Shown: positions 20,938 through 43,716, counted from the first letter of the stretch. The stretch is DNA of 64,000 bases from an uncultured Planctomycetota bacterium (GCA_963737655.1 CAVTTN010000002.1:7539828-7603827), one strand, 5' to 3'. Numbers and translations: made by a program. Notes: generated from the sequence alone by a model not told the origin.

Positions 20938-23900
20938 TCACCGTAACGATTTCCGACCTGAGATTCCCCCCAGGCCGGGCACGTCCCAGAGCTTGGCCGT
21001 GCCGTCGAGCGACCCGGTCGCGATCGTCCATCCATCCGATGAACAGGCCAATCCGAAGACCGCGCGTGAATGACCCACCAATCTTGCCCGTTCCCCGCCG
21101 GTTTCCAGGTCGAACAAGGTAACGCAACCATCCCCACGGCCCGCCACCGCCAGGATTCTCCCATCTGCCGCAATTCCCAGGGCCCGGACCGCGGCCGGAA
21201 AGCCGCCGAGGGTCAGCTTCGCTCGCCCCTCAGCCAGGTTCCAGAGCCGGGCCGTCGCATCGTGCCCTCCGCTGGCCAGGATGCGTCCGTCCGGCGAGAA
21301 GGCGAGCGTCAGGACCGAACCCGCATGACCCACGAGATCCGCAACCTCAGTCCTGGAATCGACTTCGAAAACCTTAATTTCACCAAAGGCATCCTTGCGT
21401 CCATCCCGGCCCCCGCCACCGGTTGCTATCAGCCGCCCATCAGGGCTAAAAGCCACAGCATGGAGCGAACCGCGAAACTGGTGGAGATGGGCGATTTCGG
21501 TTCGCTGGGCAATCTTCCAGAGCGACAGGACCCGATCTTCGCCGGCCGAGGCGAGGAGAGTCCCATCGGGCGAAAAAGCAAGGCTCGTCGCCCCTTCGGT
21601 CGCCGCAAGTTCCCCGTCGGGAGCGCCATCGGCGACTTTCCAGAGCCGGATCGTTCGATCCCAACTGCCAGAAGCCAAAGACTTTCCGTCGGGTGAAAAG
21701 ACGAGCGAGGAGACCCCCCGCGCGTGCCCAACGAGCGTGGCGCGGACTTTTCGGGTCGCCAGGTCCCACAGGACGATGTCGCCCGGGGCGTCATAGGCCA
21801 CGGCCCCGACGGCAAGAATGGTGCCATCCGGCGAAAATGCGGTTGGGCCGAGGCATCCGAGGTCGCCCTTGAGGCTCGCCCGAGGGGATTCCCGCCGAGC
21901 ACCCAGGTTCCAGAGCCGAACCGTTCCATCGCGACTCGCCGAGGCGAGGGTCCGGCCATCCGGGGCGAACGCCACCGAGGCCACGAGGTCGCCGTGCCCC
22001 TTGAGGGTGGCGAGCTTCCGGCCCGAAGCCACCTCCCAGAGAAGCAAATCGCCGCAAGCCTGTCCTGCGACAAGGAATCGGCCGTTTGGACTGTATGCCG
22101 AGCACGTTGCGTCGGCCGCTTTCCACCCGTTCTTCTCAACGAATGTCCCAGGGTCCCATAGATGGATATGTCCGTCCCCGCCGCATGAGGCGATCGACCG
22201 GCCGTCGGGCGAGTAGGAGACGCTGGCGATGGCTCCGGCCCGGCTTACGAACGAACCGAGCCGCTCGCCGGTCTGGAGCCGGTAGAGTACCACGGAACCT
22301 GCCTCGTTCTCCGGCCGATCTCCTGTGGCAATCGCCAGTTGCGTCGAGTCTGGTGAAAATGCGACGGCGGCGACGGTCGTGGATTGCCGGAAAGATTCTC
22401 GCGGTCGACCAGGCGTCGTCCAGTCCCAGACGAACACCTCGCCATCTGCCCCGCCCGAAGCGAGCAGGCGCCCATCCGAACTGAATGCGAGTGATCGGAC
22501 TGAACCCCTGTGTCGTTCAAGGTTTGCAACGACCTGTCCATCATCCGACCGGACGAGCCGCACCGTCCCGCTTTCGCCTCCGACGGCCAGGGTCGAGCCG
22601 TCGGGAGAAACCGCCATGACCGGCCCTCCCACGGCGAGCGGCTTGCCGAGGACCAGGCCGGTCGATGGATCGTAAATCGTGATGGAATCGCACTTTCCGG
22701 CGACGAAGACGCGGCGACCGTCCGACGAGAAGGCGACCGAACGGGCCTCGTTGGGAAAGTTCAGGATCGAGGCGGCCGAGAGGATCGGCGAGGCCGGCTC
22801 CCAGAGCCGGACTGTCCCATCATAACCTGCGGATGCAAGTTGGCGTGCCCCGGCGCGAAGCTCAGCGACGCAACACCTTCGCCGTGGCCGGTTAACGTGG
22901 TTCGTTCGCGGCCGGTCCGTACGTCCCAGAGCTTGATCGACGCGTCCAGGCTCCCGCTGGCCAGGGTCTCGCCGCCCGGGGAGAAGGCAAGAGACAGAAC
23001 CATATCCTGATGACCCGTGAGAGCCACCCGTTCTCGTCCCGTCCTGAGGTCCCAGAGACGGACCTCGCCGTCCTCGCCGGCCGAGGCCAGGGTCCGGCCG
23101 TCCGGGGCGAAGCGGACCGCTCGAATGGTGCCCGAGTGTCCCTGGAACCTGATCTTCTCACAGGACTTACGCCAATCCCATAGGATCACCGCTCGGTCGG
23201 CGCCGGCGGAGGCCACGGTTGATCCGTCCGGCCCGAACGCGACCGAGCGGACGGCCGAGGTATGGCCGGTGAGGATCGACAGCGGCGTCCCCGTGGCGGA
23301 GTCCCAGAGGCGGATCGTCCGGTCCGAGCCGGCCGAGGCGATCGTCTTGCCGTCCTGACTCACGGCCACGGCGAACACCCAGTTCGAATGGCCCTCCAGC
23401 GTGCGGACGGGTCGGCCGTCGAGGCTGCTCCAGATTCGGATGGAGCGATCGTAACCTCCAGAGACAACATGATTTCCGTCGGGAAGAAAAGCCAGGGACG
23501 TGATGGTGTCCTCGCCCGGGATGCGGACCTGGAGAGTCCCGGTCCTGGCGTCCCGAATGATGATGGAATGATCCTCGCCGGCCGTCGCCAGGAGGCGGCC
23601 ATCGGGCGAATAGGCGACCGCCAGGACGGGCATGCGGGCGAAGCCGGCCGAGGCGACCCGGTCGTCGTGAAGGAACGTGGAACCGGCCGAGAAGAGGCGA
23701 GGCTCGTCTTCCGTGGTAAGTCCAATCGGAGCGGGGGTTTGAGACTCGGCGACGGCCTTGCGAGGGCGTCCGTACGGCAGGACGATCAGTGCGAGGATGA
23801 GCAGGCCCGCCAGCGCCCGGCCCGAGAGTCGATCGTGGATCGTCCGACGGTTGTCCAGGATGCGGAGAAGCCGCCGACGGATCAGCATTCGTGATTCGAA

Positions 23901-24914
23901 TAATCCCAGGGCCGCGGCCGCCGAGGGGATGGCCGAATCGACCGTCCGGCCCACGACGGTCAGGAACCCCTCGCCGCAATCGTGTCGAGGGACATGACTT
24001 GCGGCCAGGGCCATGTCGTCGCACGCGAACTCGCGCAGTTCATCCAGGATCCAGTTGGCCAGGAGCGCGGCCGGGTGGAAGAAGAACACGGCGCCGACGA
24101 GCCTCTGGAACGTGAGCACCCACAGATCCCCTCGACGGACGTGCGCCAGCTCGTGGAGGAGGACCCAGCTCATTTGCTTCGGCGTGAGGTCGTCTTCCAG
24201 GTCGGGCGGGATCACGACGGTGGGCCGGATCAAACCGCCGACGGCCGGGGAGGTGATCCTGGGGCTAACCGCCCAACGGATGCAACCCTTGACGCCAGAA
24301 GCCTTTCGAAGGGCTTCGAGGTCGATCGCGAGGCATTCGGAGGCGTCTTCCAGGGGGATGGCCTCGCGAAGCAGACGGCGGAGCGCGAGGACCGATCTCG
24401 CGAATCGACCGATCAGCAGCGAACAAACGGCCGCCCATCCGATCATGAAGAGGGCCGGCAGTTGGATACCAGGCGCCGGAGTTTGGGCCAGGTCGGGCCG
24501 AGGCGAGGGATCGCCTCCAGGCTCTGCGGGCCGAATGGCCTCGACGGGCACGGCCGTGGCGGCCACGATCGGCTCGGGTTCGGGCACGGCGATCACCACC
24601 GGGTCCTCGGAGGGGAGGACTTCGGGGACGGTCTCGACCGGGGGAGCGGGCCGGCTCCATTTCGAGGCCCGGACCGCGGCCGATCGAATCGAGGCGGACG
24701 TGATCGTGTTCCAGGGGACGGGGATCGGCAGGGCCAGCTTCAGCAACACCAGAAGGAACAGCCCGTACGCGAGTTGCGCCGACATTCTCCGACGCAAAGG
24801 GAGCCAGATCGCCAGGACGACCGCCAGCACGAGCGACGCTTCGACCAGCGATCGCAGGACCAGCGAGGCCCAGACCGCTCCCCACGCGTTGAGCGTCTCG
24901 ACGAGGGCGGTCAT
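20938..24914 (-). CDS. BlaR1-type M56 metallopeptidase fused to about 21 WD40 repeats; frameshift near 22850
   Basis: N-terminal TMs, SPAVGGLIRP, HELAH zinc motif, REFACD; then GH...WD repeats; adding one base at the C4 run 22848-22851 gives FAPGARQLASAGYDGTVRLW and joins ORFs 22761..24914 and 20938..22632. Confidence 0.88.
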
Positions 24915-26994: not shown

Positions 26995-28251
26995 TCAATC
27001 GTCGCCTTCGAGCCGATGGAGGACCTCTCCGGCGCGATCGACGACGAGGATCCCCTCTTCCTCCCGGTCGCGGTAGGCGGCGAGATCGATCGATTGAGGA
27101 TCGAGATAGCCCAGATTGATCCTCCGGCAGCGGTCCTCCGGGATTGCCGAGGCGAGGATCACATCCACATCGGGAGTCTCGATCCCGTTTTCATACGTAC
27201 CCGACCCCTTGACGTGGGTGGAATGGGCGAGGACGCCCCAGGGAACATGTTGAAACTTATCGAATTGCTCGGTGAAATACGGCAACACGTGATAGCCGAT
27301 CTCCTCGATCCACCGGCCGTGGGTCCGGGAGACCTCGGCCAGGTGGGGGGCGACGATGATCAGCCGGCCGCCCTTCGCGACGATGGGTTCGAGCTTGTAC
27401 ATGCATTTGCCCGCCGTCCAGAGCTCGGGGTACATCGGCGGGCAGATCGACAGGACGGTGTGGAACGGGCGGGGCATGCGCCTCACGTTCACCGAGGCCG
27501 AGATGCGGGCGGCGCGGTCGTAGGCGTCCTCCGGTCGGCCGAATTCGAGGCCGTGGAGGCCGGACTTGCTGACCACGAACGAGAGACAATGCTTGGAAAC
27601 GTCGATCATGGCGGCGCAGTGGTCCACGATCCCGCGGACCGGCGTGTAATGCGTGCCGATCACCCTGCGGTTGGTGATCAGCGCGCCCAGCCAGTGGAAG
27701 ACCGCGATGATCTCCGGCCCCGCGACGCCCGGGAAGAAGTACTTGTTCCCGCCCGAGAAGCCGACGACCTCGTGGGGGAACGTCGGGCCAACGATGACAA
27801 CTTCATCATATTCGCAGATCATTTTGTTGATCTTCACCTCGATCCGTTCGGCCAGGAGGCCGCCGGAGAGGTCGGCGAGGGTCTCGGGGTCGATCGTGCC
27901 GATGGTCCGGAGCTGGGACGGGTCGTCCCATGCGTGGTTGAAGAATTGCGTCTTCGGCAATTCGCTCGCGTGGATCGCCGCATCGATCCCCAGATGTGCA
28001 TAGATTTGTTCCATCGGCATCGGGCGATGGGTGCCGAGCGCGATGAGGACGTCGAGCGAGCGGACGGCGGGGCCGAAGACCTCGCCGAGGGTGCGGACCA
28101 TCAGGCCGATGGGGCCGGAGCGGGTGTCGTCGGGGACGATCAGGAGGACTCGCTTGCCGATCAGGTCGAGCGAATCGGCGGCCCGCTCGACGATCTCGCG
28201 GACGTCGGAGGCGTCGAGGAGCTTCGGAGGGGCGTCGAGGATCGCGGTCAT
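26995..28251 (-). CDS. LarA-superfamily (nickel-pincer) 2-hydroxyacid racemase/epimerase
   Basis: VPDDTRS, IALGTHRPM, FNHAWDD, PHEVVGFSGGNKYFFPG, IAVFHW, LWTAGK. Confidence 0.88.
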   Translation of the reverse strand: MTAILDAPPKLLDASDVREIVERAADSLDLIGKRVLLIVPDDTRSGPIGLMVRTLGEVFGPAVRSLDVLIALGTHRPMPMEQIYAHLGIDAAIHASELPKTQFFNHAWDDPSQLRTIGTIDPETLADLSGGLLAERIEVKINKMICEYDEVVIVGPTFPHEVVGFSGGNKYFFPGVAGPEIIAVFHWLGALITNRRVIGTHYTPVRGIVDHCAAMIDVSKHCLSFVVSKSGLHGLEFGRPEDAYDRAARISASVNVRRMPRPFHTVLSICPPMYPELWTAGKCMYKLEPIVAKGGRLIIVAPHLAEVSRTHGRWIEEIGYHVLPYFTEQFDKFQHVPWGVLAHSTHVKGSGTYENGIETPDVDVILASAIPEDRCRRINLGYLDPQSIDLAAYRDREEEGILVVDRAGEVLHRLEGDD

Positions 28252-29132
28252 GATCGGGGTTCCGGGCTCTCGATGAGGTCGAACGGGAGGCCGTAGAACG
28301 CGGCGGCCGTCCCCCCGAAGATCCGTTCGGTTTCGCCTCCGCCCAGGGGTCCGAGCGCGCCGACGGCCGCCTCGAAGACGTCTTCATACGACGCCGCGAG
28401 CTCGCAGACGGGCCAGTCCGAGCCGAACATCAACCGATTCGGGCCGAAGCATTCCAGGGCGGTCTGCACATAAGGGCGCAGGTCCTGGACGGTCCATTCC
28501 GCCCAGTCCGCCTCGGTGACCATCCCCGAGATCTTGCACCAGACGTTCGGGAAGCTGGACGCGAGGCGGAAGCCCGGGAGCCAGTCGTCGAGGGCGTGCT
28601 CGCGAATCCTCGGCTTGGCCAGGTGGTCGATGACCATGGGCAGTTCCGGCAGCGCCCTCGCCAGCGTCGGGACGTGCCGGAGGTGCTTGACATGCAGGAG
28701 GAGGTCGAAGGGGACGCGATGGCGTTCCAGGATCTTCAGGCCTCGAAGGACGTCGGGCCGGACGATCCAATCGTCGTCGGGCTCGTCCTGGACGACGTGG
28801 CGGACCCCGACGAACTTCGGATGATCCCGGAATTCGAGCAATTGCTCCTCGCACGACGGCGACGCCAGGTCGACCCAGCCGACGACCCCGGCGATCCAGT
28901 CGTGCGCCTCGGCCAGGCCGAGCACCCAGCGGTTTTCCTCGACGTTGTGCTGGGTCTGGACGAACACCGTCCGATCGACCCCGACGAGCTTGATCTCCGG
29001 TTCGAGGTCTCCGGGCAGGAAATCGCGGCGGATCGGCGCATGGGGCGGGGCGTCGAGCCACCGGTAATCGAACGGGCGGGCCAACTGCCAGAAGTGCTGG
29101 TGGGCGTCGATCACGGGTCGATGCGTGGGCAT
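28248..29132 (-). CDS. Amidohydrolase-fold sugar lactonase (L-fucono/L-galactono-lactonase family)
   Basis: IDAHQHFW, GVVGWVDL, GVRHVVQDEPD, VIDHLAKP, CKISGMVTEA, MFGSDWPVC. Confidence 0.9.
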   Translation of the reverse strand: MPTHRPVIDAHQHFWQLARPFDYRWLDAPPHAPIRRDFLPGDLEPEIKLVGVDRTVFVQTQHNVEENRWVLGLAEAHDWIAGVVGWVDLASPSCEEQLLEFRDHPKFVGVRHVVQDEPDDDWIVRPDVLRGLKILERHRVPFDLLLHVKHLRHVPTLARALPELPMVIDHLAKPRIREHALDDWLPGFRLASSFPNVWCKISGMVTEADWAEWTVQDLRPYVQTALECFGPNRLMFGSDWPVCELAASYEDVFEAAVGALGPLGGGETERIFGGTAAAFYGLPFDLIESPEPRS

Positions 29133-29138
29133 GTCGAT

Positions 29139-29585
29139 TCAATCCATCCGGACGCCGAGGGTGAGCATCACGTTGGCGAAGCGCTGCTGGTCGGCGGTCT
29201 GGATCGTCAGGACGTGGTCGGGGGTGGCCACGGCGTCGTAGAAGGCCCATTTTTCGATCGGTTCGAGCGACAGGTCAAGCCCCGACTGGCGGATGGTCCG
29301 GCGGTATTCGTCCCAGACCTCGGGGTCCTCGTCGAGGGCATACGGGCCGGTGGTCTCATACATCATCGTATGAACGGCCTCGATCGGGACCGCCGAGAGC
29401 AGGGCCTCCAGGACCTGGGTGCACGAGACGACGCCCGGCATCAGGTTCAGGCTCACGACCTCGGCATTCGGGCCCTTCTTGGACGACGCCGGGTAGTTGC
29501 CGTCGGCGATCAGGATCTTGGCGTGATGCCCCGCCCGGCCGACGATGGCGTTGATCTCGGGATGGATCAGTCGATGCTTGAGCAT
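29139..29585 (-). CDS. RbsD/FucU family mutarotase
   Basis: MLKHRLIHPEI, AGHHAKILIADGNYP, FYDAV, IQTADQQRFANVML; ATG at 29585 (the upstream ORF extension runs into a repeat). Confidence 0.88.
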   Translation of the reverse strand: MLKHRLIHPEINAIVGRAGHHAKILIADGNYPASSKKGPNAEVVSLNLMPGVVSCTQVLEALLSAVPIEAVHTMMYETTGPYALDEDPEVWDEYRRTIRQSGLDLSLEPIEKWAFYDAVATPDHVLTIQTADQQRFANVMLTLGVRMD

Positions 29586-29604
29586 TCGGGGTTTCTCCGG
29601 GAGC

Positions 29605-29862
29605 GGACTAACCGCCAAGACGCCAGGAACGCCAAGGGAAGAGGGGAGGAAAGTTTGAAGAGAATCGGGAGAGTTTGGATGAGGGTAAGCTTGAAGACTT
29701 GTAAAGTTTAAATTATTAAAATAATAATGATAACACAATGTGATAGAATATTGATATTTGTGCAGGAATTCGCTTCATTCACGTACTCTTATGTTCTTCA
29801 CTCATCCCCTCGCTCCTCCTTTCGCTTCCCCTTGGCGTTCCTGGCGTCTTGGCGGTTAGTCC
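29605..29862. repeat. Perfect 34-bp inverted repeat enclosing a ~190-bp AT-rich core
   Basis: GGACTAACCGCCAAGACGCCAGGAACGCCAAGGG at 29605-29638 and its exact reverse complement at 29829-29862. Confidence 0.9.
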
Positions 29863-30686
29863 TCCCTCCCGGCAAAAAGCGAGCGAAACGAGGAGATGGT
29901 CTGGAGGGCGGCGGAGTCGGAGTCGGGCCGGGGGAGGGCCTCGGCGGAGGCGAAGCCGTCGAAGTGGATGTCGCGGAGGGCCTGGGCGATCGGCTCGAAA
30001 TCGAGGTGGCCGAAGCCGGCCGCCTGGCGGTTCGAATCGACGAAGTGGACGTGGCCGACGTGCCGGCCGCCGAGGCGGAGCGCCCCGGCGATATCGACTT
30101 CCTCGATGTTCATGTGGAACAGGTCGTTCAGGAGTTTCACGTTCCCGGATGAGAGACGTTCCAGGAGCGTCACGCCGTCGGCCACGAGGTTGATCAGGTC
30201 GGTTTCGTAACGATTCAGGGGCTCGTAGAGCAGGGGGACGGCGAAGCGCGAGGCGTGTTCGCCGAGCGTGTCGAGCGCGTCCTTGAGGAAGCCGAGCGCC
30301 GACGCGCGATCGAGGCCGTCGCCCGATCGGCCCTGCATCGAGCCGATGATCGCCGGCGCGCCGAACGGGCCTCCCAGGTCGATGATCGACTTGACGAAGT
30401 CGAGGGCCCCGGCCCGGATCGAGGCGTCGGGGCTGGTCAAGGTCAGGCGATGCTTGACCCAGCCGGCACCGGTGCCGACGGCGGCCAGCCCCAGGCCGAG
30501 GTCATTCAGGAGCCGGCCCAGGTCGTTCGCGTCCACGTCCGAGGCCGACGGCGGGAAGACCTCGACGGCGTCGAACCCGAGCGCCCTGGCCTTCTCGCAG
30601 CCGGCTTCGAGGCCGTCCCAGAACACGAACGGGCCGCCCCGGGCCTCGGGGACGAGGCTGATCGTCACGCAAGATCGGATCGGCAT
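29856..30686 (-). CDS. TIM-barrel sugar isomerase/epimerase, IolO (5-keto-L-gluconate epimerase)-like
   Basis: AVGTG, IIGSMQG, EPLNRYETDLIN, DLFHMNIEE, HVHFVDSNR, GHLDF. Confidence 0.8.
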   Translation of the reverse strand: MPIRSCVTISLVPEARGGPFVFWDGLEAGCEKARALGFDAVEVFPPSASDVDANDLGRLLNDLGLGLAAVGTGAGWVKHRLTLTSPDASIRAGALDFVKSIIDLGGPFGAPAIIGSMQGRSGDGLDRASALGFLKDALDTLGEHASRFAVPLLYEPLNRYETDLINLVADGVTLLERLSSGNVKLLNDLFHMNIEEVDIAGALRLGGRHVGHVHFVDSNRQAAGFGHLDFEPIAQALRDIHFDGFASAEALPRPDSDSAALQTISSFRSLFAGRED

Positions 30687-30719
30687 GGGCGGATTGGTCC
30701 CCTTCGGATCGAGGCCGGC

Positions 30720-31502
30720 TCAGAACCGCATCGCGGTGAAGCCGCCGTCCACGTAGTAGGTGGCGCCGGTCATGAAGCTCCCGGCCGTTCTGGAGAGCAA
30801 CAACAGGGTGGCGCCGACGAGTTCGTGGGGCTCGCCGAACCGGGCCATCGGCGTGTTCTTCATGATGTTTTCGACCCGGGCGGCGTCGAGGATCTTGCGG
30901 TTCTGCTCGGCCGGGAAGAAGCCGGGGCAGAGGGCGTTGACCCTCACGTTCGACGGGGCGAGCTCGCGGGCCACGTTCTGGGTGAGGTTCACCACGGCCG
31001 CCTTCGAGGCCGAATAGGCGAAGACGCGAGACAGCGGCAGGTGGGCCGAGACGCTCGCCACGTTCAGGATTGCGCCTCCGCCGTGGTCGGCCATGAACCG
31101 CCCGAAGACCTGGCAGCCCCAGTGGACGGCGGTCAGGTTGCTCTGGATCACGCGGTCCCAGTCCTCGTCCTTCGCCTCGAAATAGGGGCTGGCGCTGTTC
31201 ACTCCGGCGCCGTTGATGAGCATGTCCGCGCGTCCGAACGTGTCGATCGTGGTTTGCAGCAGTCGTTCGATCGAGGCCCGTTGCGTGACGTCCACGGCGC
31301 CGAAAGCCGCCTTGCCGCCGCCGCTTTCGATGCTCCAAACGCGTTCGGCCCCCTTCTCGGGGCTGCGACCGGCGACGACCACGGTCGCTCCGGCCAGGGC
31401 CAATCCTTCGGCCAGGGCACCGCAGAGGACCCCGGTCCCGCCGATCACGACGGCGACCTGTCCTTCGAGTCCGAACAGGCGATCCAGGTAGCCGGCCGTC
31501 AT
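30720..31502 (-). CDS. SDR oxidoreductase, D-mannonate oxidoreductase/fructuronate reductase-like
   Basis: GGTGVLCG, INGAG, PLSRVFAYSASK (YxxxK), PGFFPAEQNR; adjacent to uxaE. Confidence 0.8.
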   Translation of the reverse strand: MTAGYLDRLFGLEGQVAVVIGGTGVLCGALAEGLALAGATVVVAGRSPEKGAERVWSIESGGGKAAFGAVDVTQRASIERLLQTTIDTFGRADMLINGAGVNSASPYFEAKDEDWDRVIQSNLTAVHWGCQVFGRFMADHGGGAILNVASVSAHLPLSRVFAYSASKAAVVNLTQNVARELAPSNVRVNALCPGFFPAEQNRKILDAARVENIMKNTPMARFGEPHELVGATLLLLSRTAGSFMTGATYYVDGGFTAMRF

Positions 31503-31527
31503 CGGTTAGAGTTCTCCTTCGATCGGA

Positions 31528-32817
31528 TCAAAGCCCCTGGCGGAGCGCGTCCAGGTGGCGGGCGAAGTGGTCGGCGAGGACCTCGGTATACGTGGCGGGG
31601 TTCGCTTCGAGGACGCCCCGGACGGCGGGCCCGAGGGTCGGGTCGGTCAGGACCGAGCCGAACGTGCAGTGGAGGATCTGGCGGCCGGGGGCGGTGAAGC
31701 CCTTGCCCTCGGGCACGTCTTCCCATTTTTCGAGATAATGCCGTTCCAGCTCCGCGATAGTCTCCACGGACGCCTCCGGAGGGGCCGATTTCAGGGTCGC
31801 CGAGACGTGATACGTGGCCTTGTCCCGGTCGTATCGAGAGCGGGCGAAGTCGACGATTCGGCGGAACAAGGGCTCGTCGTGCCGGGCGACCACGCGGAGG
31901 GCTTCGAGGTAGCTCGTCCCGGCCGTCTTCACGTGGAATCGGCCCTTCGTGGCCCGAGCCAACGCCGGGTACATTGAGAGCTTGTCCGAGCCGGAATGCA
32001 GGCTCAGCTTGTAGGGGCCGAGGATCTCGGCGATGGCGGCGTGATCGTTCAACGAGCGTTCGAGGGCCGCCACATCGCCCTTGTAATCGACGCCCTTCTC
32101 GAAGTCGCCGACGTAGCGAGGGGCGAGGCTCACGAGCTTCATCCCCCGGCCCAGGCACTGGTCGGCGATGATGTAATGCTCGCCCAGGGTCGTCGGCTGC
32201 TCGGTCTCATCCACGCTGAGCTCGATCTCGTAGTCGCGCCCGCATTGCTGATGGACGTTCTCGATATGCTCGGCCAGCGAGAGCGCGTGGTTCAGGGCCC
32301 GGCCGTACTTCACGGCCGCCCGGAGGCAGGCGTCCTCGTCGAGGGCGATGGTCGTCCCGGTCGGCAGGGTGATCGACTCGCCCTTGTAGCGGTCGATCCA
32401 GTCGACTTCCTCGGCGATCTCGGCGAATCGACGGCGGAGCGTGTCGCGATCGTAACCGTCGGCGTGGGCATCGACGTGGTCCGACGGGTCGATCGTGAAG
32501 AACGTGAACCCGACGGCGGCGGTTGCATCCACGTCGGCGGGCGTCTTCAGGTGATCGGCGTCCGCGCCGGTCGGCCCGGTCCATCCGGCGAGCTTCATCC
32601 AGCAAATCGCGTCGTCCATGACCTTCGCCGGAGAGCGTCCGGTCCGGGCCATTTCTCGGATCGATTGCTGGGGGAAAATCGGGTCGATCCCGCCTCCCGA
32701 CCGCCTCATGGCCTCGACGTGCCCCGGAGTGGCCAGGCCGATCCGGTCGCCGAAGCCGAAGCTGGGGTTCAGGCCGAGCGTGGAGCAGGGGGACGGGCCG
32801 GAAGGGGATTCGGGCAT
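31528..32817 (-). CDS. uxaE: Tagaturonate/fructuronate epimerase
   Basis: SFGFGDRIGLATPGH, QQSIREMART, ADADHLK, TIDPSDHV, ELSVDET, GDFEKGVDY, KLSLHSGSDK, HVKTAGTSYLEALR. Confidence 0.93.
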   Translation of the reverse strand: MPESPSGPSPCSTLGLNPSFGFGDRIGLATPGHVEAMRRSGGGIDPIFPQQSIREMARTGRSPAKVMDDAICWMKLAGWTGPTGADADHLKTPADVDATAAVGFTFFTIDPSDHVDAHADGYDRDTLRRRFAEIAEEVDWIDRYKGESITLPTGTTIALDEDACLRAAVKYGRALNHALSLAEHIENVHQQCGRDYEIELSVDETEQPTTLGEHYIIADQCLGRGMKLVSLAPRYVGDFEKGVDYKGDVAALERSLNDHAAIAEILGPYKLSLHSGSDKLSMYPALARATKGRFHVKTAGTSYLEALRVVARHDEPLFRRIVDFARSRYDRDKATYHVSATLKSAPPEASVETIAELERHYLEKWEDVPEGKGFTAPGRQILHCTFGSVLTDPTLGPAVRGVLEANPATYTEVLADHFARHLDALRQGL

Positions 32818-32836
32818 GAGACTGGTGCTCCACTCA

Positions 32837-32893
32837 GTAGGGCAGGCCTCGGCCTGCCGACCCGCGAAGACGGCAGGCCGAGGCCTGCCCTAC
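32837..32893. repeat. GTAG-family REP doublet (23-bp inverted pair)
   Basis: GTAGGGCAGGCCTCGGCCTGCCG at 32837-32859 and exact reverse complement at 32871-32893; each unit has an internal 8-bp hairpin. Confidence 0.85.
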
Positions 32894-32958
32894 GATGGAC
32901 CGTCCTGCGGCGCCGGGACGTGAACCGCGGAAAGTCTTCCGATTTCCATGTCGTCCTG

Positions 32959-33978
32959 TCAATCCAGCTCCACGATCGCCTTGATCACGCCGGTTTCGGG
33001 TTTCGTGTAGGAAGGGAACAGGGCGGGGAGGTCGTCGAACGGGGCCCGGTGGGTGATCCAGGGCTTGGTGTCGATTCGTCCGTTTTCGATCAGGCCGATA
33101 ATCCGGGTGAAGTCGCCGGGCAGGGCGTTTCTCGAGGCGAGGAGCGTGCCCTCGGGCCTGTGGAGGACCGCCGGGCGGAACTTGACCTCCTCGGAGGTGA
33201 GGCCGACATAGACCAATCGGCCGCCGGGGGCGAGGTAGGAGAAGGCCAGTCCCATCGACGTGCTGTTGCCCGTGGCGTCGATCACCACGTCGGGCAGGTG
33301 GCCGTCGGTCAGGGCGCGGAGGTCGGTTTCGAGCGAATCCGAGGGCTGCAAGGTGAATTCGAGGCCCATGACCGACCGGCAGAACTCCAGGCGGGCGGCG
33401 TTGGTGTCCAGCATGATGGTCTTCGCGCCGGAGAGCGTCACGAATTCGAGGACTGCCAGGCCGATCGGCCCGGCGCCGATGATCAGGCACGATTCGTCCG
33501 ACTGGAGGGCGCCGCGATTGACGGCGTGGCAGCCGATCGCCAGGGTCTCCACCAGCGCAAGCTGATCGAGCGAGAGCTTTGTCGAGGGATGAAGCTTGCG
33601 GGCGGGCAGGAGGAATTCGGGCCTCAAGCCGCCGTCGCGATGGACCCCGAGCACTTCCAGCCGTTCGCAGCAGTTGGGATGCCCCTTGCGGCTGGCGTAG
33701 CTCGTCGGGTCGTTGATGTAGGGCTCGACCGAGCAGCGGTCGCCGGGTTTGACGTTGGACACGCCCTCGCCGACGGCCACGACCTCGACCCCGAGCTCGT
33801 GGCCGGGGATTCTCGGGTAGCTGAAAAACGGCATCTTGCCGAGATAGCCGCTGATGTCACTTCCGCAGATGCCCACGCGATGGACCTTCACCAGGGCCTC
33901 GCCCGGGCCGGGCGCGCCCGGCGGGTCGATCTCGACCTTCTTGAAGTCCTTCGGGGCCTCCAGGAGCAGGGCCTTCAT
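32959..33978 (-). CDS. Zn-dependent dehydrogenase, L-galactonate 5-dehydrogenase (LgoD/YjjN)-like
   Basis: GICGSD, FFSYPRIPGHELG, NCCERLEVLGVHRDGG, GAGPIG, DATGN, ASRNA; ATG at 33978. Confidence 0.82.
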   Translation of the reverse strand: MKALLLEAPKDFKKVEIDPPGAPGPGEALVKVHRVGICGSDISGYLGKMPFFSYPRIPGHELGVEVVAVGEGVSNVKPGDRCSVEPYINDPTSYASRKGHPNCCERLEVLGVHRDGGLRPEFLLPARKLHPSTKLSLDQLALVETLAIGCHAVNRGALQSDESCLIIGAGPIGLAVLEFVTLSGAKTIMLDTNAARLEFCRSVMGLEFTLQPSDSLETDLRALTDGHLPDVVIDATGNSTSMGLAFSYLAPGGRLVYVGLTSEEVKFRPAVLHRPEGTLLASRNALPGDFTRIIGLIENGRIDTKPWITHRAPFDDLPALFPSYTKPETGVIKAIVELD

Positions 33979-34943
33979 GAGCGCGTCCCTTCGGCGAACC
34001 TCGCCGGGATCGGGTCGTTGTTCTCGGGGCGACCCTCGATGTAGAACCAGTCGTGAATCGGTTCGAGGATCGCCAGGACCTCGGCCAGCAAGGTCGGGTC
34101 GATCGGCTGGTCGGCCCATTCGACCCATTTTCGGACGTTCTTCGGGTTCGCCGACCCGACGATGCACGTGGCCATGTCCTCGTTGGCGACCGAGTATTGC
34201 AAGGCGAGCTGGGCGATGTCCACGCCCTTCGATTCGCAGTGCTCGGCCGCCTTCTTGCAGATCGCACGGACCTGGGGCGTGGCCTTGTGCCACGGGGGAA
34301 GCTCGGTGTTCGTCAGCAGCCTCGCCGAGAACGGCGCCGCGTTCATGATCCCCACGTTCTTGGCTTTGAGGAACGGCACGAGGTCGGCGAACATGGTGTT
34401 TTGCAAGGTGTAATGGTTGTACGACAGGACGACGTCCAGGTCGGCTCGATCGAGGACGTAGCGAAAGATGTTCATCGGGTAGCCGCTGATCCCGATGAAG
34501 CGCACCTTCCCCTCGGCCTGGACCTTGCGGAGCGCCGGCAGCGTCTCCTCGACGATCTGGGACATCTCCACGAACTCGATGTCGTGGCAGAGCATGACAT
34601 CGAGATGGTCGGTCTTCATCCGTTCGAGGCTGATATCGACGCTCTCGACGACCCGTTTGGCCGAGAAGTCGAAATGGCTGCCGCTGTAGCGGCCGAGCTT
34701 CGAGCCGAGGTAATACCGATCGCGAGGGATTCCCTTCAACGCGACCCCGAGGAGACATTCGCTCATCCCCCGGCCGTAGAACGGCGAGGTGTCGATGAAG
34801 TTCATCCCCAGGTCCAGCGCCTCGTGGACCGAGTGGATCGCCTCGCCGAGGTCGATCGAGCGGAACTCCTGGCCGAGCGACGAGGCGCCGAAGCTCAACC
34901 ACGACAGTTCCAGGCCCGTCCGGCCGAGTGGTCGGAATTTCAT
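33975..34943 (-). CDS. Aldo/keto reductase, L-galactose dehydrogenase-like
   Basis: LSFGASSLG, IDTSPFYG, SKLGRY, FDFSAKRV, CHDIEF, IGISGYP, LSYNHY; ATG at 34943. Confidence 0.85.
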   Translation of the reverse strand: MKFRPLGRTGLELSWLSFGASSLGQEFRSIDLGEAIHSVHEALDLGMNFIDTSPFYGRGMSECLLGVALKGIPRDRYYLGSKLGRYSGSHFDFSAKRVVESVDISLERMKTDHLDVMLCHDIEFVEMSQIVEETLPALRKVQAEGKVRFIGISGYPMNIFRYVLDRADLDVVLSYNHYTLQNTMFADLVPFLKAKNVGIMNAAPFSARLLTNTELPPWHKATPQVRAICKKAAEHCESKGVDIAQLALQYSVANEDMATCIVGSANPKNVRKWVEWADQPIDPTLLAEVLAILEPIHDWFYIEGRPENNDPIPARFAEGTRS

Positions 34944-35066: not shown

Positions 35067-35146
35067 GAAACGCGGATTACGCAGATTGCTCAGATTGCAT
35101 AAATGAAATCCAATTCAATCTGCGTAATCTGCGTAATCTGCGTTTC
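35067..35146. repeat. Inverted repeat made of three tandem 9-mers (ACGCAGATT) per arm
   Basis: 35067-35097 versus 35116-35146, 28/31 complementary, 18-nt AT-rich loop, in a divergent intergenic region. Confidence 0.85.
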
Positions 35147-38984: not shown

Positions 38985-41900
38985 ATGGAAGCCTGGGTCG
39001 AGGACTTCGAAGTCCCTCCCGGCGATCCCTCGGAGCCGAGCGGACCCAGAATGGACCCGACCGAACGTAGGTCTCCGATCCCCGACCCCCTCGCGTCCCT
39101 CGCCGAAGGAGGCGAGATGGGCGGTCGCACGCGGGCGTTCGACTGGTCCGCGACGCCCCTCGGGCCGATCGATGGCTGGCCTCGGGCGTTGCGGACGGTG
39201 GTCCGCGTGATGCTGGACTCGCGATACGCCATGTGGTTGGGCTGGGGCCCGGACCTGATCTTCTTCTACAACGACGCCTACGCCCGGATGACCCTCGGGC
39301 CCAAGCACCCCTGGGCCCTGGGCCGACCGGCCCGCGAGGTCTGGTCGGAGATCTGGGACGACATCGGGCCCCGGGCCGATCAGGTCGTCCGGACCGGCCA
39401 GGCCACGTGGGACGAGGGGCTGCTCCTGTTCCTGGAGAGGCAGGGGTTCCGCGAGGAGACTTACCACACCTTCTCGTACAGCCCCGTGCCCGACGATGCC
39501 GGAGGGGTCGGCGGGTTGCTATGCGTGGTGACCGAGGACACCGAGAGGACCGTCGGCGAGCGTCGCCTGAGGACACTCCGCGAGCTGGCGGCCCGGACGA
39601 GCGACGAGACGAGTTCGGCCGTCGAAGCGTGCCGGACGGCGGCCAGGACCCTCGCCGCGAATCCTCAGGACGTGGCGTTCACCTTATTCTACCTGCTCGA
39701 TGCCGAGGGCCGGCGGGCGACCCTGGCCGGTTCGGCCGGGGTGGAGGCGGGGTCGCCGATGAGTCCGACGGTCGTGGACCTGGACGACGACACCGCGCCG
39801 TGGCCGTTCGGCCGGGTCGTGGCGACGGGTCGGTCGGCGGACGTCGAAGGGTCGGCCGAGCGGTTCGGCCCGTGGCCTGGCGGGGTCTGGCCCGAGCCGT
39901 CCCGGCGGGCGGTTCTCCTGCCGATGGCCCGGCCGGGTCAATCGCAGCTCGCCGGGTTCGTCGTGGTGGGCGTGAGTCCGCGCCGCCCCCTGGACGACGG
40001 CTATCGAGGCTTCCTGGACCTCCTGGCCGGCCAGATCGCCAACACCGTGGCCAACGCCCGCGCCTATGCCGAGGAACGGCGGAGGGCCGAGGAACTCGCC
40101 GAGCTCGACCGGGCCAAGACGGCGTTCTTCTCCAACGTCAGCCACGAGTTCCGCACGCCCTTGACCCTGCTCCTGGGACCCGTCGAGGACATCCTGGCCA
40201 AGCCGCCGGGCGAGGTCCTCGCCGCCAACCGGGACCTCCTGGAGGTCGTCCACCGCAACGCGCTCCGGCTCCAGAAGCTGGTCAATAGCTTGCTGGATTT
40301 CTCCAGGATCGAGGCCGGGCGAGTCCGGGCCCAGTTCGAGCCGACGGACCTGGCGGGTTTCACCGCCGAGCCTCGCCAGCAACTTCCACTCGGCCTGCGA
40401 CCGGGCCGGCCTGGCCCTGGTCGTCGATTGCCCGCCGGCGGCCGAGCCGGCGTTCGTGGATCGGGACATGTGGGAGAAGATCGTCCTGAACCTCGTCTCC
40501 AACGCCTTCAAATACACCCTGGAAGGCCGGATCGAGGTGAGTCTCCGCCAGGAAGGCGACCGGTCCGAGCTGGAGGTGAAGGATACCGGGGTGGGCATCC
40601 CGGCCGAGGAGATGCCCAAGCTGTTCGAGAGGTTCCACCGGGTCGAGGCCTCTCGGGGCCGGACCCAGGAAGGCTCGGGGATCGGCCTGGCGCTGGTCAA
40701 GGAGCTCGCCCGGTTCCACGGAGGCGACGTCCGGGCCGAGAGCCGCCCCGGCCAGGGATCGACGTTCACCGTGTCGATCCCCCTGGGTTCGTCCCACCTG
40801 CCGGCCGACCGGGTCGGCGCCCGGCGGGAGGGGCCGTCGACGGCCCTGGGCGCGGCGTCCTTCGTGGAAGAGGCGCAGCGATGGCTGCCCGGGGCGTGGG
40901 CGGCGGCCCCTCCGGCGATCGTGCCGAGCGGCGACCGGCCGCCCGGGGCGTCGTCGCCGCCCCCCGGCTCCCGGCCCCGCGTCCTCCTGGCGGATGATAA
41001 TGCGGACATGCGTGAGTATGTCCGCCGATTGCTGGCGACTCGCTTCGCCGTGGAGGCGGTCGGCGACGGCGTCTCGGCCCTGGCCTCGGCCCGGTCGCTC
41101 CGGCCCGACCTGGTCCTCTCCGACGTGATGATGCCGGGCCTGGACGGCTTCGGCCTCCTCCGCGAGCTCCGGGCCGACCCGGGCACGCGAGACGTGCCGG
41201 TCCTGCTCCTCTCGGCCCGGGCCGGGGAGGAGGTCGAGGGCCTGGAAGCCGGGGCCGACGACTACCTGACCAAGCCGTTCCACGCTCGCGAGCTCCTCGC
41301 CCGGGTCGCCTCGCAAATCGACCTGGCCGCTCTCCGGCGTCAGGCGGAGACGGAGCGCAGGCTGGGCGAGGAGCGAAGCCGGGCGATCCTGGAAAGCATC
41401 ACCGACGCCTTCTTCGCCGTCGATCGCGCCTGGAAGTTCACCTATGTGAATCGCCAGGCCGAGCAGGTCCTCGACCGCCGCGCCGGCGAGCTCCTCGGCC
41501 GGACCCTCTGGGAAGTCTTCCCCGGCCTGGTCGGCAGCGAATTCGAGCCGTCGTACCTCCGGGCGATGGACCAGGGGGAGTCGAGCTCGCTGACCTCCTA
41601 TTATCTCGACCACGACCGCTGGTACGAGGTCCACACCTACCCCGCCGCCGAGGGCGTCTCGATCTACTTCCGCGACGTGACCGAGAAGGTCCGCGCCGAG
41701 GAGCGAGAGCGGGCACTCCTGTCGGAGGCGGCCTCGGCCAACCTGAGATTCCGAGCGTTCTTCGAGCAAGGCGCCCTGTTCGCCGGGATCATGGCCGTCG
41801 ACGGAACGATCCTCGAGCCCAACCGGCTTTCTCTGGAGGCGTGCGGGTTCACCCGAGAGCAGGTCATCGGCCGGAAGTTCTGGGAATGTCCGTGGTGGAG

Positions 41901-43716
41901 CCCGTCGCCGGACGTCTCCCGGACGATCCGCGAGGCGTCGGCCCTGGCGGCCCTCGGTCACACCTTTCGCGCCGAGATGCCGTACTTCGTCGCCGACGGC
42001 GGCCAGGGCGTCCTGGACCTGATCCTCCTGCCCATCAAGGACGATGAGGGGCGGGTCCTCTTCCTCGCGCCCACCGGCACGGACGTCACCGAGAGGAAAC
42101 GGGCCGAGGCCGCCCTGATCCGCCTGACCCTGGAGTCCGAGCAACAGCGGAGGGTCTACGAGACGGCCCTCTCCAACACCGCCGACTTCAATTACGTCTT
42201 CGACCTGGACGGCCGGTTCAGCTATGTCAACGACGCCCTCCTCAGCCTCTGGCGAAAGACGCTGCCGGAAGCGATCGGGAAGAACTTCTTCGAGCTGGAC
42301 TATCCGCAGGAGCTGGCCCAACAGCTCCAGGACGAGATTCGCCAGGTGATCCGCACGAAGTCGCGGGTCCGGGGAGAGACCCCCTACACCGGTCCCGACG
42401 GCGAGCGGCAATACGAGTACATCTTCGTGCCCGTTCTCAAGGACGACGGCTCGGTCGGTGCCGTCGCGGGCTCGACCCGGGACATCACCGAGAGGAAGGA
42501 ATGGGAGGAGGGCCTGAGGAGGCTGGCGGCCGACCTCTCCGAGGCCGATCGCCGCAAGGATGAGTTCCTCGCCACGCTCGCCCACGAGCTCCGCAACCCC
42601 CTGGCGCCGATCCGCAACGGATTGCAGATCCTCCGCCTCGCCGGCGACGATCGCTCGGCCGCCGAGGAGGCGCGGATGCTCATGGAACGCCAGGTGGCCC
42701 ACATGGTCCGCCTGATCGACGACTTGCTGGACGTTTCGCGGATCACCCGGGGCAAGCTGGAGCTCCGGAGGGAGCGGGTCGAGCTCGCGGCGGTCGTCCA
42801 GGTCGCCGTCGAGACCAGTCGGCCGCTGGTGGAGTCCGCCGGCCACGAGCTTTCCGTGACCATGCCGGCTCGCCCGATCGTCCTGGACGCCGACCCGACC
42901 CGCCTGGCCCAGGTGATCTCCAACCTCCTGAACAACGCGGCCAAGTACACCGAGCCCGGCGGCCAGATCGCCCTGGTCGTCGAGCGTCGGGGCGGCGAGG
43001 CCGTCGTGACGATCCGCGACAACGGCGTGGGCATCCCGGCCGAGATGCTTCCCCGAGTGTTCGACATGTTCGCGCAGGTCGACCAATCGTTGGAGAAGTC
43101 GCAGGGAGGGCTGGGGATCGGCCTGACCCTGGTCCAGAGGCTCACGCAGATGCACGGGGGGTCGGTCGAAGCCAGGAGCGACGGCCGCCCCGGCCTCGGC
43201 AGCGAATTCCAGGTTCGGCTGCCGATCGAAGCCGAGGCGACCGCCCGCCCGGCGGCTCGTCCGGCCTCGCCGCTGCCCCTCGGACCCAGCCCGAGCCTTC
43301 GCATCCTCATCGTCGATGACAACCTGGACTCCGCCCGGACCCTCGCCCGGCTTCTCCGCCTCCTCGGGCATCGCACCTTCACCGCCCACGACGGCGGTGA
43401 GGCTCTGGAGGTGGCCGAGGAGGAACGGCCAGACGTGGTCCTCCTGGACATCGGCTTGCCCGTGCTCAACGGCTACGACGTGGCCCGGCAGATCCGCCAG
43501 CGCCCCTGGGGCCGGGACATCCAGATCATCGCCCTGACCGGCTGGGGCCAGGAGTCCGACCGCCAGCGGTCGAAGGAGTCGGGATTTGACCACCACCTGG
43601 TCAAGCCGATCGACCCGGACGCCTTGCGGGGCCTCTTGCTCGGGCCCACCACCAACGGAGGGCCCGCCCCGAGCCCGTCCGCCACCGTGACGACGGCCCC
43701 TCCTCACGGCTCATGA
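38985..43716 (+). CDS. Hybrid double histidine kinase (PAS-GAF-HisKA-HATPase-REC-3xPAS-HisKA-HATPase-REC); extra base near 40370
   Basis: H-boxes VSHEFRTPL and LAHELRNPL; G-boxes GSGIGL and GLGIGL; REC motifs SDVMMP and LDIGLP; start 38985 or 39051. Confidence 0.9.

Follow-up and report, generated by a model that had tools for sequence, protein, structure and literature searches.

The catabolism of L-glucose has been worked out in just two bacteria, and its purpose is puzzling, as L-glucose is thought to be near-absent in nature. Luteolibacter sp. LG18 uses a dual L-glucose/L-galactose pathway that runs through LguA, LguD and LguG and then through LguC, LguB, LguH and LguE (Yachida et al. 2025, PMC12632266). 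Paracoccus laeviglucosivorans 43P, as summarised in the same paper, converts L-glucose via L-gluconate to 5-keto-L-gluconate. Phocaeicola (Bacteroides) vulgatus reaches D-tagaturonate from L-galactose (Hobbs et al. 2014, as cited in PMC12632266 and PMC13661200), and Thermotoga maritima carries an operon for galacturonate, gnd-uxaE-uxaD-gntE-gntK (PMC3750489). Here we describe an eight-gene cluster from an uncultured Planctomycetota bacterium (GCA_963737655.1; genome G000) that resembles these systems in different parts. It lies in a stretch of 64,000 nucleotides (CAVTTN010000002.1:7539828-7603827), termed the window.

We consider it fairly probable that the cluster encodes a route from L-galactose, and probably also from L-glucose, to D-gluconate. 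In the proposed pathway, an RbsD/FucU-family protein would accelerate anomer exchange, an aldo-keto reductase (AKR) would oxidize the L-hexose to a lactone, and an amidohydrolase would open the lactone ring to give the L-aldonate. Oxidation at C5 by a Zn-dependent dehydrogenase would convert L-galactonate to D-tagaturonate and L-gluconate to 5-keto-L-gluconate, the latter being turned into D-tagaturonate by a putative TIM-barrel epimerase. UxaE would then epimerize D-tagaturonate to D-fructuronate, a short-chain dehydrogenase/reductase (SDR) would reduce this to D-mannonate, and a nickel-pincer enzyme of the LarA family would invert C2 to yield D-gluconate. For L-glucose the net outcome would be the mirror-image acid. 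D-Gluconate could leave through a kinase as 6-phosphogluconate (no such gene was found in the G000 assembly), or through a YagF/YjhG-type dehydratase, a 2-keto-3-deoxygluconate (KDG) kinase and Eda. For every protein of the cluster, the closest characterised relative performs the predicted step. The entry of L-hexose and the exit of D-gluconate, as put forward in the original prediction made from the DNA alone, agree with homology, conserved residues and gene context.

The closest precedent for the upper half of the pathway appears to be LG18, rather than Bacteroides. The LG18 pathway and the cluster share an AKR dehydrogenase, a Zn-type L-aldonate 5-dehydrogenase, an IolO-like C4 epimerase with an rbsD-like neighbour, and convergence on D-tagaturonate. 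The match suggests a role for the TIM-barrel gene in converting 5-keto-L-gluconate to D-tagaturonate, and hence an entry for L-glucose. Unlike the cluster, LG18 has an altronate/KDG exit and keeps lguG outside its main gene cluster, and a lactonase, UxaE, SDR or LarA is not described there (PMC12632266). The LG18-type tagaturonate reductase LguC/UxaB (PF08125) was not found in G000. The cluster AKR also differs from LguA, with an alanine at the site of Met212. P. vulgatus shares with the cluster an AKR, a lactonase and an L-galactonate dehydrogenase leading to D-tagaturonate, but the papers citing that work mention no C4 epimerase, UxaE or LarA step, and its dehydrogenase keeps Met at position 212. 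P. laeviglucosivorans shares the passage through L-gluconate to 5-keto-L-gluconate, but is reported to use an unrelated first enzyme and to proceed via D-idonate and 2-keto-3-deoxygalactonate (KDGal) (PMC12632266).

The lower half resembles T. maritima, in which UxaE, an SDR fructuronate reductase and a nickel-pincer mannonate/gluconate 2-epimerase act in series. As described in PMC3750489, the T. maritima operon differs in being fed by pectin-derived galacturonate, in including gntK and gnd, and in having no L-hexose entry genes. The cluster reads as the first enzyme set of LG18 joined to the second set of T. maritima, plus a lactonase. The original prediction had joined a Bacteroides half to a Thermotoga half; the two-half logic and the Thermotoga half stand, and for the upper half the Lgu pathway is the closer counterpart. 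In a literature search that left most subscription papers uncovered, the two halves were found separately and the combination in one operon was not described, as had been claimed. The portions seen of a paper on planctomycete sugar metabolism (PMC5673643) do not mention L-galactose. New here are a complete predicted path to gluconate in one operon, an either-or pattern with UxaB, a gluconokinase remnant and the Ala substitution. The predicted path would be a third exit for L-glucose pathways, a full L-to-D gluconate inversion via four epimerisation steps. It predicts functions for several unnamed planctomycete gene families and, if the predictions are true, would provide a small group of enzymes with which racemic synthetic sugars could be used.

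The eight open reading frames (ORFs) are all on the minus strand of the window and intact, each with an ATG start and a single terminal stop codon (Table 1). In transcription order they encode the AKR, Zn-dehydrogenase, UxaE, SDR, TIM barrel, RbsD/FucU protein, amidohydrolase and LarA, separated by -4, 141, 25, 33, 270, 6 and -4 nt. All eight proteins exceed the Pfam cut-off of their families (Aldo_ket_red, ADH_N/ADH_zinc_N, UxaE, adh_short, AP_endonuc_2, RbsD_FucU, Amidohydro_2 and Lar_N), so that both the gene order and the family calls of the original prediction hold. Inside the cluster there is no dehydratase, kinase, aldolase, transporter or regulator gene. The absence of a mannonate or altronate dehydratase, a kinase and an aldolase, also claimed at the outset, is confined to the cluster: a UxaA-family dehydratase, a KDG-kinase-like gene and Eda are encoded elsewhere in the genome.

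Table 1. Features of the eight-gene cluster, in transcription order (window coordinates)
Feature	Position	Strand	Basis
AKR, L-galactose/L-glucose 1-dehydrogenase-like (LguA-like), 322 aa	33975..34943	-	PF00248
Zn-dependent dehydrogenase, L-galactonate/L-gluconate 5-dehydrogenase-like (LgoD/LguD-like), 339 aa	32959..33978	-	LgoD similarity
Repetitive extragenic palindrome (REP)-like palindrome, 23-nt perfect arms, between Zn-dehydrogenase and uxaE	32837..32893	.	dispersed repeat
UxaE tagaturonate/fructuronate epimerase, 429 aa, single copy	31528..32817	-	PF16257, 382 bits
SDR, likely fructuronate reductase (D-mannonate oxidoreductase), 260 aa	30720..31502	-	PRK08277 best model
TIM-barrel epimerase, IolO/LguG-like (5-keto-L-gluconate to D-tagaturonate), 276 aa	29856..30686	-	IolO best model
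Inverted repeat, 34-nt perfect arms, between TIM-barrel gene and fucU	29605..29862	.	arm dispersed in genome
RbsD/FucU-family protein, likely sugar mutarotase, 148 aa	29139..29585	-	PF05025, 104 bits
Amidohydrolase-family sugar lactonase, 294 aa	28248..29132	-	PF04909
LarA-family nickel-pincer epimerase, GntE type (D-mannonate/D-gluconate 2-epimerase), 418 aa	26995..28251	-	4NAR match

The AKR is a candidate NAD(P)-dependent L-galactose/L-glucose dehydrogenase. In a sequence search of the structure database, its five best relatives are L-galactose dehydrogenases, led by 9W6Y/9W7A (E 2.7e-96). The 9W7A structure is that of Luteolibacter LguA, which has a catalytic tetrad of Asp51, Tyr56, Lys82 and His122 and the binding residues Ser21, Asp123 and Trp223 (PMC13661200). 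The cluster AKR retains the tetrad and the substrate residues as D51, Y56, K82, H120, S21, D121 and W218. Structure prediction from the AKR sequence by itself gave a low-quality model (predicted local distance difference test score, pLDDT, 47.9), which was not used.

The Zn-dehydrogenase shares 36% identity with E. coli LgoD (E 1e-76), compared with E values of 6e-46 for RspB and 2e-18 for IdnD, and is the best match to LgoD in G000. The amidohydrolase is matched best by the model of L-fucono-1,5-lactonase (243 bits; cut-off 400) and aligns with the solved structure 4DLF at E 2e-47. The RbsD/FucU protein matches the RbsD and FucU equivalog models alike, and weakly. In LG18, an 'rbsD' gene adjoins lguG (PMC12632266, Fig. 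3 legend).

The TIM-barrel protein is a candidate 5-keto-L-gluconate epimerase, which would admit L-glucose to the pathway. Its best model is IolO, the 5-keto-L-gluconate epimerase (227 bits; cut-off 300), against 110 bits for the psicose epimerase model. Its best solved relative is TM_0416 (E 1.2e-44), an IolO, ahead of tagatose/psicose 3-epimerases, and the active-site motifs, including the presumed metal-binding residues, are kept. A homologue search returned 120 generically named proteins and does not settle orthology to LguG. The UxaE protein aligns along its entire length with solved structures of UxaE (E 1.6e-88 and 5e-75), and no paralogue of it was found in G000.

Among 225 NCBIfam models, the SDR is matched best by PRK08277, the D-mannonate oxidoreductase (238 bits; cut-off 281), and a search of the PDB at E 1e-38 returned no match. 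Gene context places its orthologues with gluconate genes (gntE, gnd or gntK), adjoining gnd in some loci and larA in others. A relative beside larA and gntK in locus L199 passes the D-mannonate oxidoreductase cut-off. Outside the bacterium's own family, an SDR orthologue adjoins gnd in at least 7 of 12 loci (L138-L144), often together with a phosphofructokinase (PFK)-like gene and a HAD gene, and four of the 12 have no gnd context.

LarA is closest to T. maritima GntE2 (4NAR, E 4.3e-61), the next LarA structure following at 1.8e-7. In the alignment to 4NAR, none of the seven residues for catalysis and cofactor binding is lost; they are D41, R44, H75, H160, K170, H186 and K282, which correspond to D72, R75, H108, H174, K184, H200 and K298 of the reference. 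Gluconate 2-epimerases of the GntE type (groups 18-20) are reported to bear E, V, A and H at four specificity positions (PMC11770544). The cluster LarA carries the full signature (E161, V162, A342 and H343); among 80 metagenomic LarA orthologues, all 78 that match over the full length carry it too. The activity of T. maritima GntE2 has been demonstrated (PMC7583248). Near the 80 orthologue loci, a related SDR occurs in 40, gnd in 12 and gluconokinase in 3. A quick tree, from an incomplete search for the best tree, groups the six close family-level LarAs together and resolves nothing further.

Other LarA-family genes were also observed. Five further ones lie on contig C2 of G000 (L098-L102), two of them, one split, matching the group 22 model over its cut-off. 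Across Planctomycetia, a hexonate-type LarA, either group 18 or GntE2-like, is present in 69 of 141 genomes with one listed match per genome, and the types seemingly replace each other. In L231 (4417-11266), an AKR, a sugar ABC transporter, a lactonase and a GntE-type LarA form one run followed by isomerase- and kinase-like genes; in this arrangement LarA might act at entry.

Gene neighbourhoods were surveyed within 10 kb of the closest 80 of at least 585 AKR relatives in the genome collection, in which many contigs are short. The genes recur together more often than by accident: the Zn-dehydrogenase occurs at 57 of these loci, the TIM barrel at 37, FucU at 37, UxaE at 25, the lactonase at 17, the SDR at 8 and LarA at 2; looser thresholds give 27 for UxaE and 7 for the SDR. 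Gene orders are shuffled, and a six-gene core is found in 13 of the 80 loci. The order of all eight genes is identical in G154 and G155 (locus L011 is the same contig as that of G155). Locus L180, with a LarA 72% identical, contains the AKR, Zn-dehydrogenase, UxaE, SDR, TIM barrel, lactonase, a 73-residue gluconokinase fragment and LarA, and no fucU. The fragment directly before larA suggests that phosphorylation of gluconate was formerly the operon's final step. The presence of a putative L-glucose-specific epimerase beside 37 of the 80 AKRs, across Planctomycetota, suggests a common natural substrate.

UxaE (27 loci) and UxaB (11 loci) never occur together at the 80 AKR loci. Within the bacterium's own family, 12 of 34 genomes sampled have a close AKR; six of these carry a UxaB-type reductase within 3 kb, the other six carry UxaE and this SDR, and none has both. 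In the class, sampled by 140 genomes (141 with G000) and compiled by hand from tables, 52 genomes have a close AKR, of which 43 have UxaE of the close or divergent type, 10 UxaB, two both and one neither. The AKR, UxaE, SDR and hexonate-type LarA are all found somewhere in 36 class genomes. The pathway is widespread in the form of scattered genes and seldom gathered in a single operon. The SDR and LarA are loose partners, usually located elsewhere in the genome and joined to the operon in few genomes. In L158 (4380-13066, from G125), HAD and PFK-like genes directly follow the L-hexose cluster.

The original prediction had suggested looking for gntK/gnd and uxuA elsewhere in the genome. Two copies of gnd are present in G000; gluconokinase was found neither with TIGR01313 nor by typing of FGGY kinases nor with an E. 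coli IdnK query, and UxuA and UxaB were not found. A match to thermoresistant gluconokinase at C2:3664576 is an adenylyl-sulfate kinase, and the FGGY kinases type as xylulokinase, glycerol kinase and rhamnulokinase-like. A UxaC-like gene is present; since UxaB and UxuA were not found, the UxaE-SDR-LarA half probably serves uronate breakdown as well. G000 also encodes a YagF/YjhG dehydratase above its cut-off. Indirect evidence, reported as data not shown in PMC13279387, indicates that E. coli YagF/YjhG dehydrate gluconate. Elsewhere in G000 lie a fucose-isomerase-like and a rhamnulokinase-like gene. A regular-expression look for microcompartment shell genes, too crude to be informative, returned none.

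Two further loci concern sugar-acid metabolism. In L121 (4605-6955; G000 C2:6200604-6202954), a KDG-kinase-like gene directly follows a glucose 1-dehydrogenase-like gene, a pair that might form, with the YagF/YjhG dehydratase (108 of 141 class genomes), an Entner-Doudoroff route of the semi-phosphorylative kind. In L149 (5969-7375), an uncharacterised enolase-superfamily protein of 468 residues is a candidate sugar-acid dehydratase, with a homologue near the SDR-gnd cluster in L144.

Several observations weigh against the route to D-gluconate. The AKR has Ala207 at the Met212 site, as do 99 of 99 homologue rows, some duplicated. The SDR, TIM barrel, lactonase and LarA each score below the curated cut-off of their own best NCBIfam model. 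Among 120 other family genomes, just 4 have this LarA type, which stands alone in G092 and G199, and the three genomes from the same genus lack it. Besides gluconokinase, a PFK-like gene, the candidate substitute for it, was not found in G000, where the HAD gene is present. UxaA-like genes occur in 133 of 141 class genomes. Of the six family genomes that carry UxaE and the SDR, three (G080, G100 and G112) have neither a hexonate-type LarA nor UxuA, so that LarA is not the sole possible sequel to UxaE and the SDR. The co-occurrence counts are also confounded by kinship, related genomes not being independent.

The cofactor genes present a similar difficulty. The larB gene was not found in G000, though 59 of 60 genomes of the family carry it, and a frameshift interrupts both larC and larE. 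An assembly fault is probably responsible, because the assembly (three contigs) reaches 87.7% completeness, frameshifts divide 13 of 77 orthologous loci between frames, and the genes flanking larB in relatives, presumably argB, argJ and a carbohydrate-kinase-like gene, are missing as well. Such faults weaken every failure to find a gene in G000. Within the window, a BlaR1/WD40 gene (20938-24914) and a sensor kinase gene (38985-43716) are each split into two overlapping frames, consistent with assembly indels.

One other reading, which we regard as rather unlikely, has the cluster lead to altronate. LarA, UxaE and the TIM-barrel epimerase would feed gluconate, mannonate, fructuronate and 5-keto-L-gluconate into D-tagaturonate and D-altronate; the SDR or another reductase would make altronate, and a UxaA-family dehydratase, KDG kinase and Eda would complete an LG18-like route. 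The epimerase steps are all reversible, G000 has the three later genes and no detected gluconokinase, and UxaA-like genes, besides being widespread in the class, adjoin the AKR in 4 of the closest 80 loci. This reading would also account for G080, G100 and G112. It is opposed by the failure to find a UxaB-type reductase in G000 and by the SDR, whose best model is a D-mannonate oxidoreductase, whose relative in L199 passes that cut-off beside larA and gntK, and whose orthologues adjoin gnd. The gluconokinase remnant in L180 likewise points to an exit through gluconate.

There is also a small chance that the route is the same but its natural entry sugar is another, such as L-gulose, O-methylated L-galactose, L-fucose or D-arabinose, with L-galactose and L-glucose as side substrates. 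The invariant Ala for Met212 would fit such a change, as would the surrounding motif, which also differs from LguA in planctomycete AKRs. The best models of the lactonase and mutarotase include fucose types, and by our own stereochemical reasoning L-gulonate would yield fructuronate directly. However, LguA is inactive on L-fucose and D-arabinose (PMC12632266), and UxaE and the TIM-barrel gene are needed for the galactose and glucose series only. By our reasoning, the pathway would turn a 6-deoxy sugar into a 6-deoxy acid, barred from conversion to 6-phosphogluconate or 2-keto-3-deoxy-6-phosphogluconate (KDPG). The fucose-isomerase-like and rhamnulokinase-like genes elsewhere in G000 also speak against this reading. 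Met212 of LguA lies over C4 of the sugar and governs the preference between L-galactose and L-glucose (PMC13661200).

A broader version of the route to D-gluconate is conceivable but improbable. An AKR with Ala at the Met212 site could take L-glucose and other L-aldohexoses, and up to eight L-aldohexoses could be led to D-gluconate. LarA would then also act at C2 of L-aldonates, turning L-mannonate into L-gluconate, L-talonate into L-galactonate and L-idonate into L-gulonate, and the four 5-keto acids would all converge through the two keto-acid epimerases. Known GntE enzymes, however, are reported to be narrow in substrate range. If this version were true, the wide conservation in Planctomycetota would make L-glucose-type sugars a regular natural food.

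It is very doubtful that LarA is a recent passenger of a conserved unit that stops at D-mannonate, with an unrecognised dehydratase or kinase using the product and the epimerase serving another need. Only 2 of the closest 80 AKR loci include LarA, and three family genomes keep UxaE and the SDR without it. G000 has the uncharacterised enolase-superfamily gene, and Lactobacillus suebicus is reported to consume mannonate by way of a kinase (PMC6978723). Against this, larA overlaps the lactonase stop by 4 nt, the link recurs in G154, G155 and L180, and of the 69 class genomes that have a hexonate-type LarA, 63 contain the SDR as well. In addition, no ManD-type enzyme is found among three PF02746 matches, two of which type otherwise, the third being split and untyped. 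A fucose-only pathway is rejected, since a 6-deoxy acid has no exit via this gene set.

Two of the gaps in the cluster contain dispersed repeats. The 141-nt gap holds the REP-like palindrome, found at about 103 places genome-wide. In the 270-nt gap, the 34-nt inverted repeat surrounds a 190-nt AT-rich (37% GC) single-copy core, and its arm occurs at about 66 places in the genome; it resembles repeats found at the borders of small mobile cassettes in planctomycetes. A promoter scan upstream of the AKR gene found no site. The DUF1501 gene downstream, across a 31-nt gap, was rejected as a cluster member, as it is not conserved in L173, L174 and L180. A second inverted-repeat family is present at window positions 35067-35146 and at about 31 places in the genome; together with the REP-like palindrome, it flanks or interrupts the cluster.

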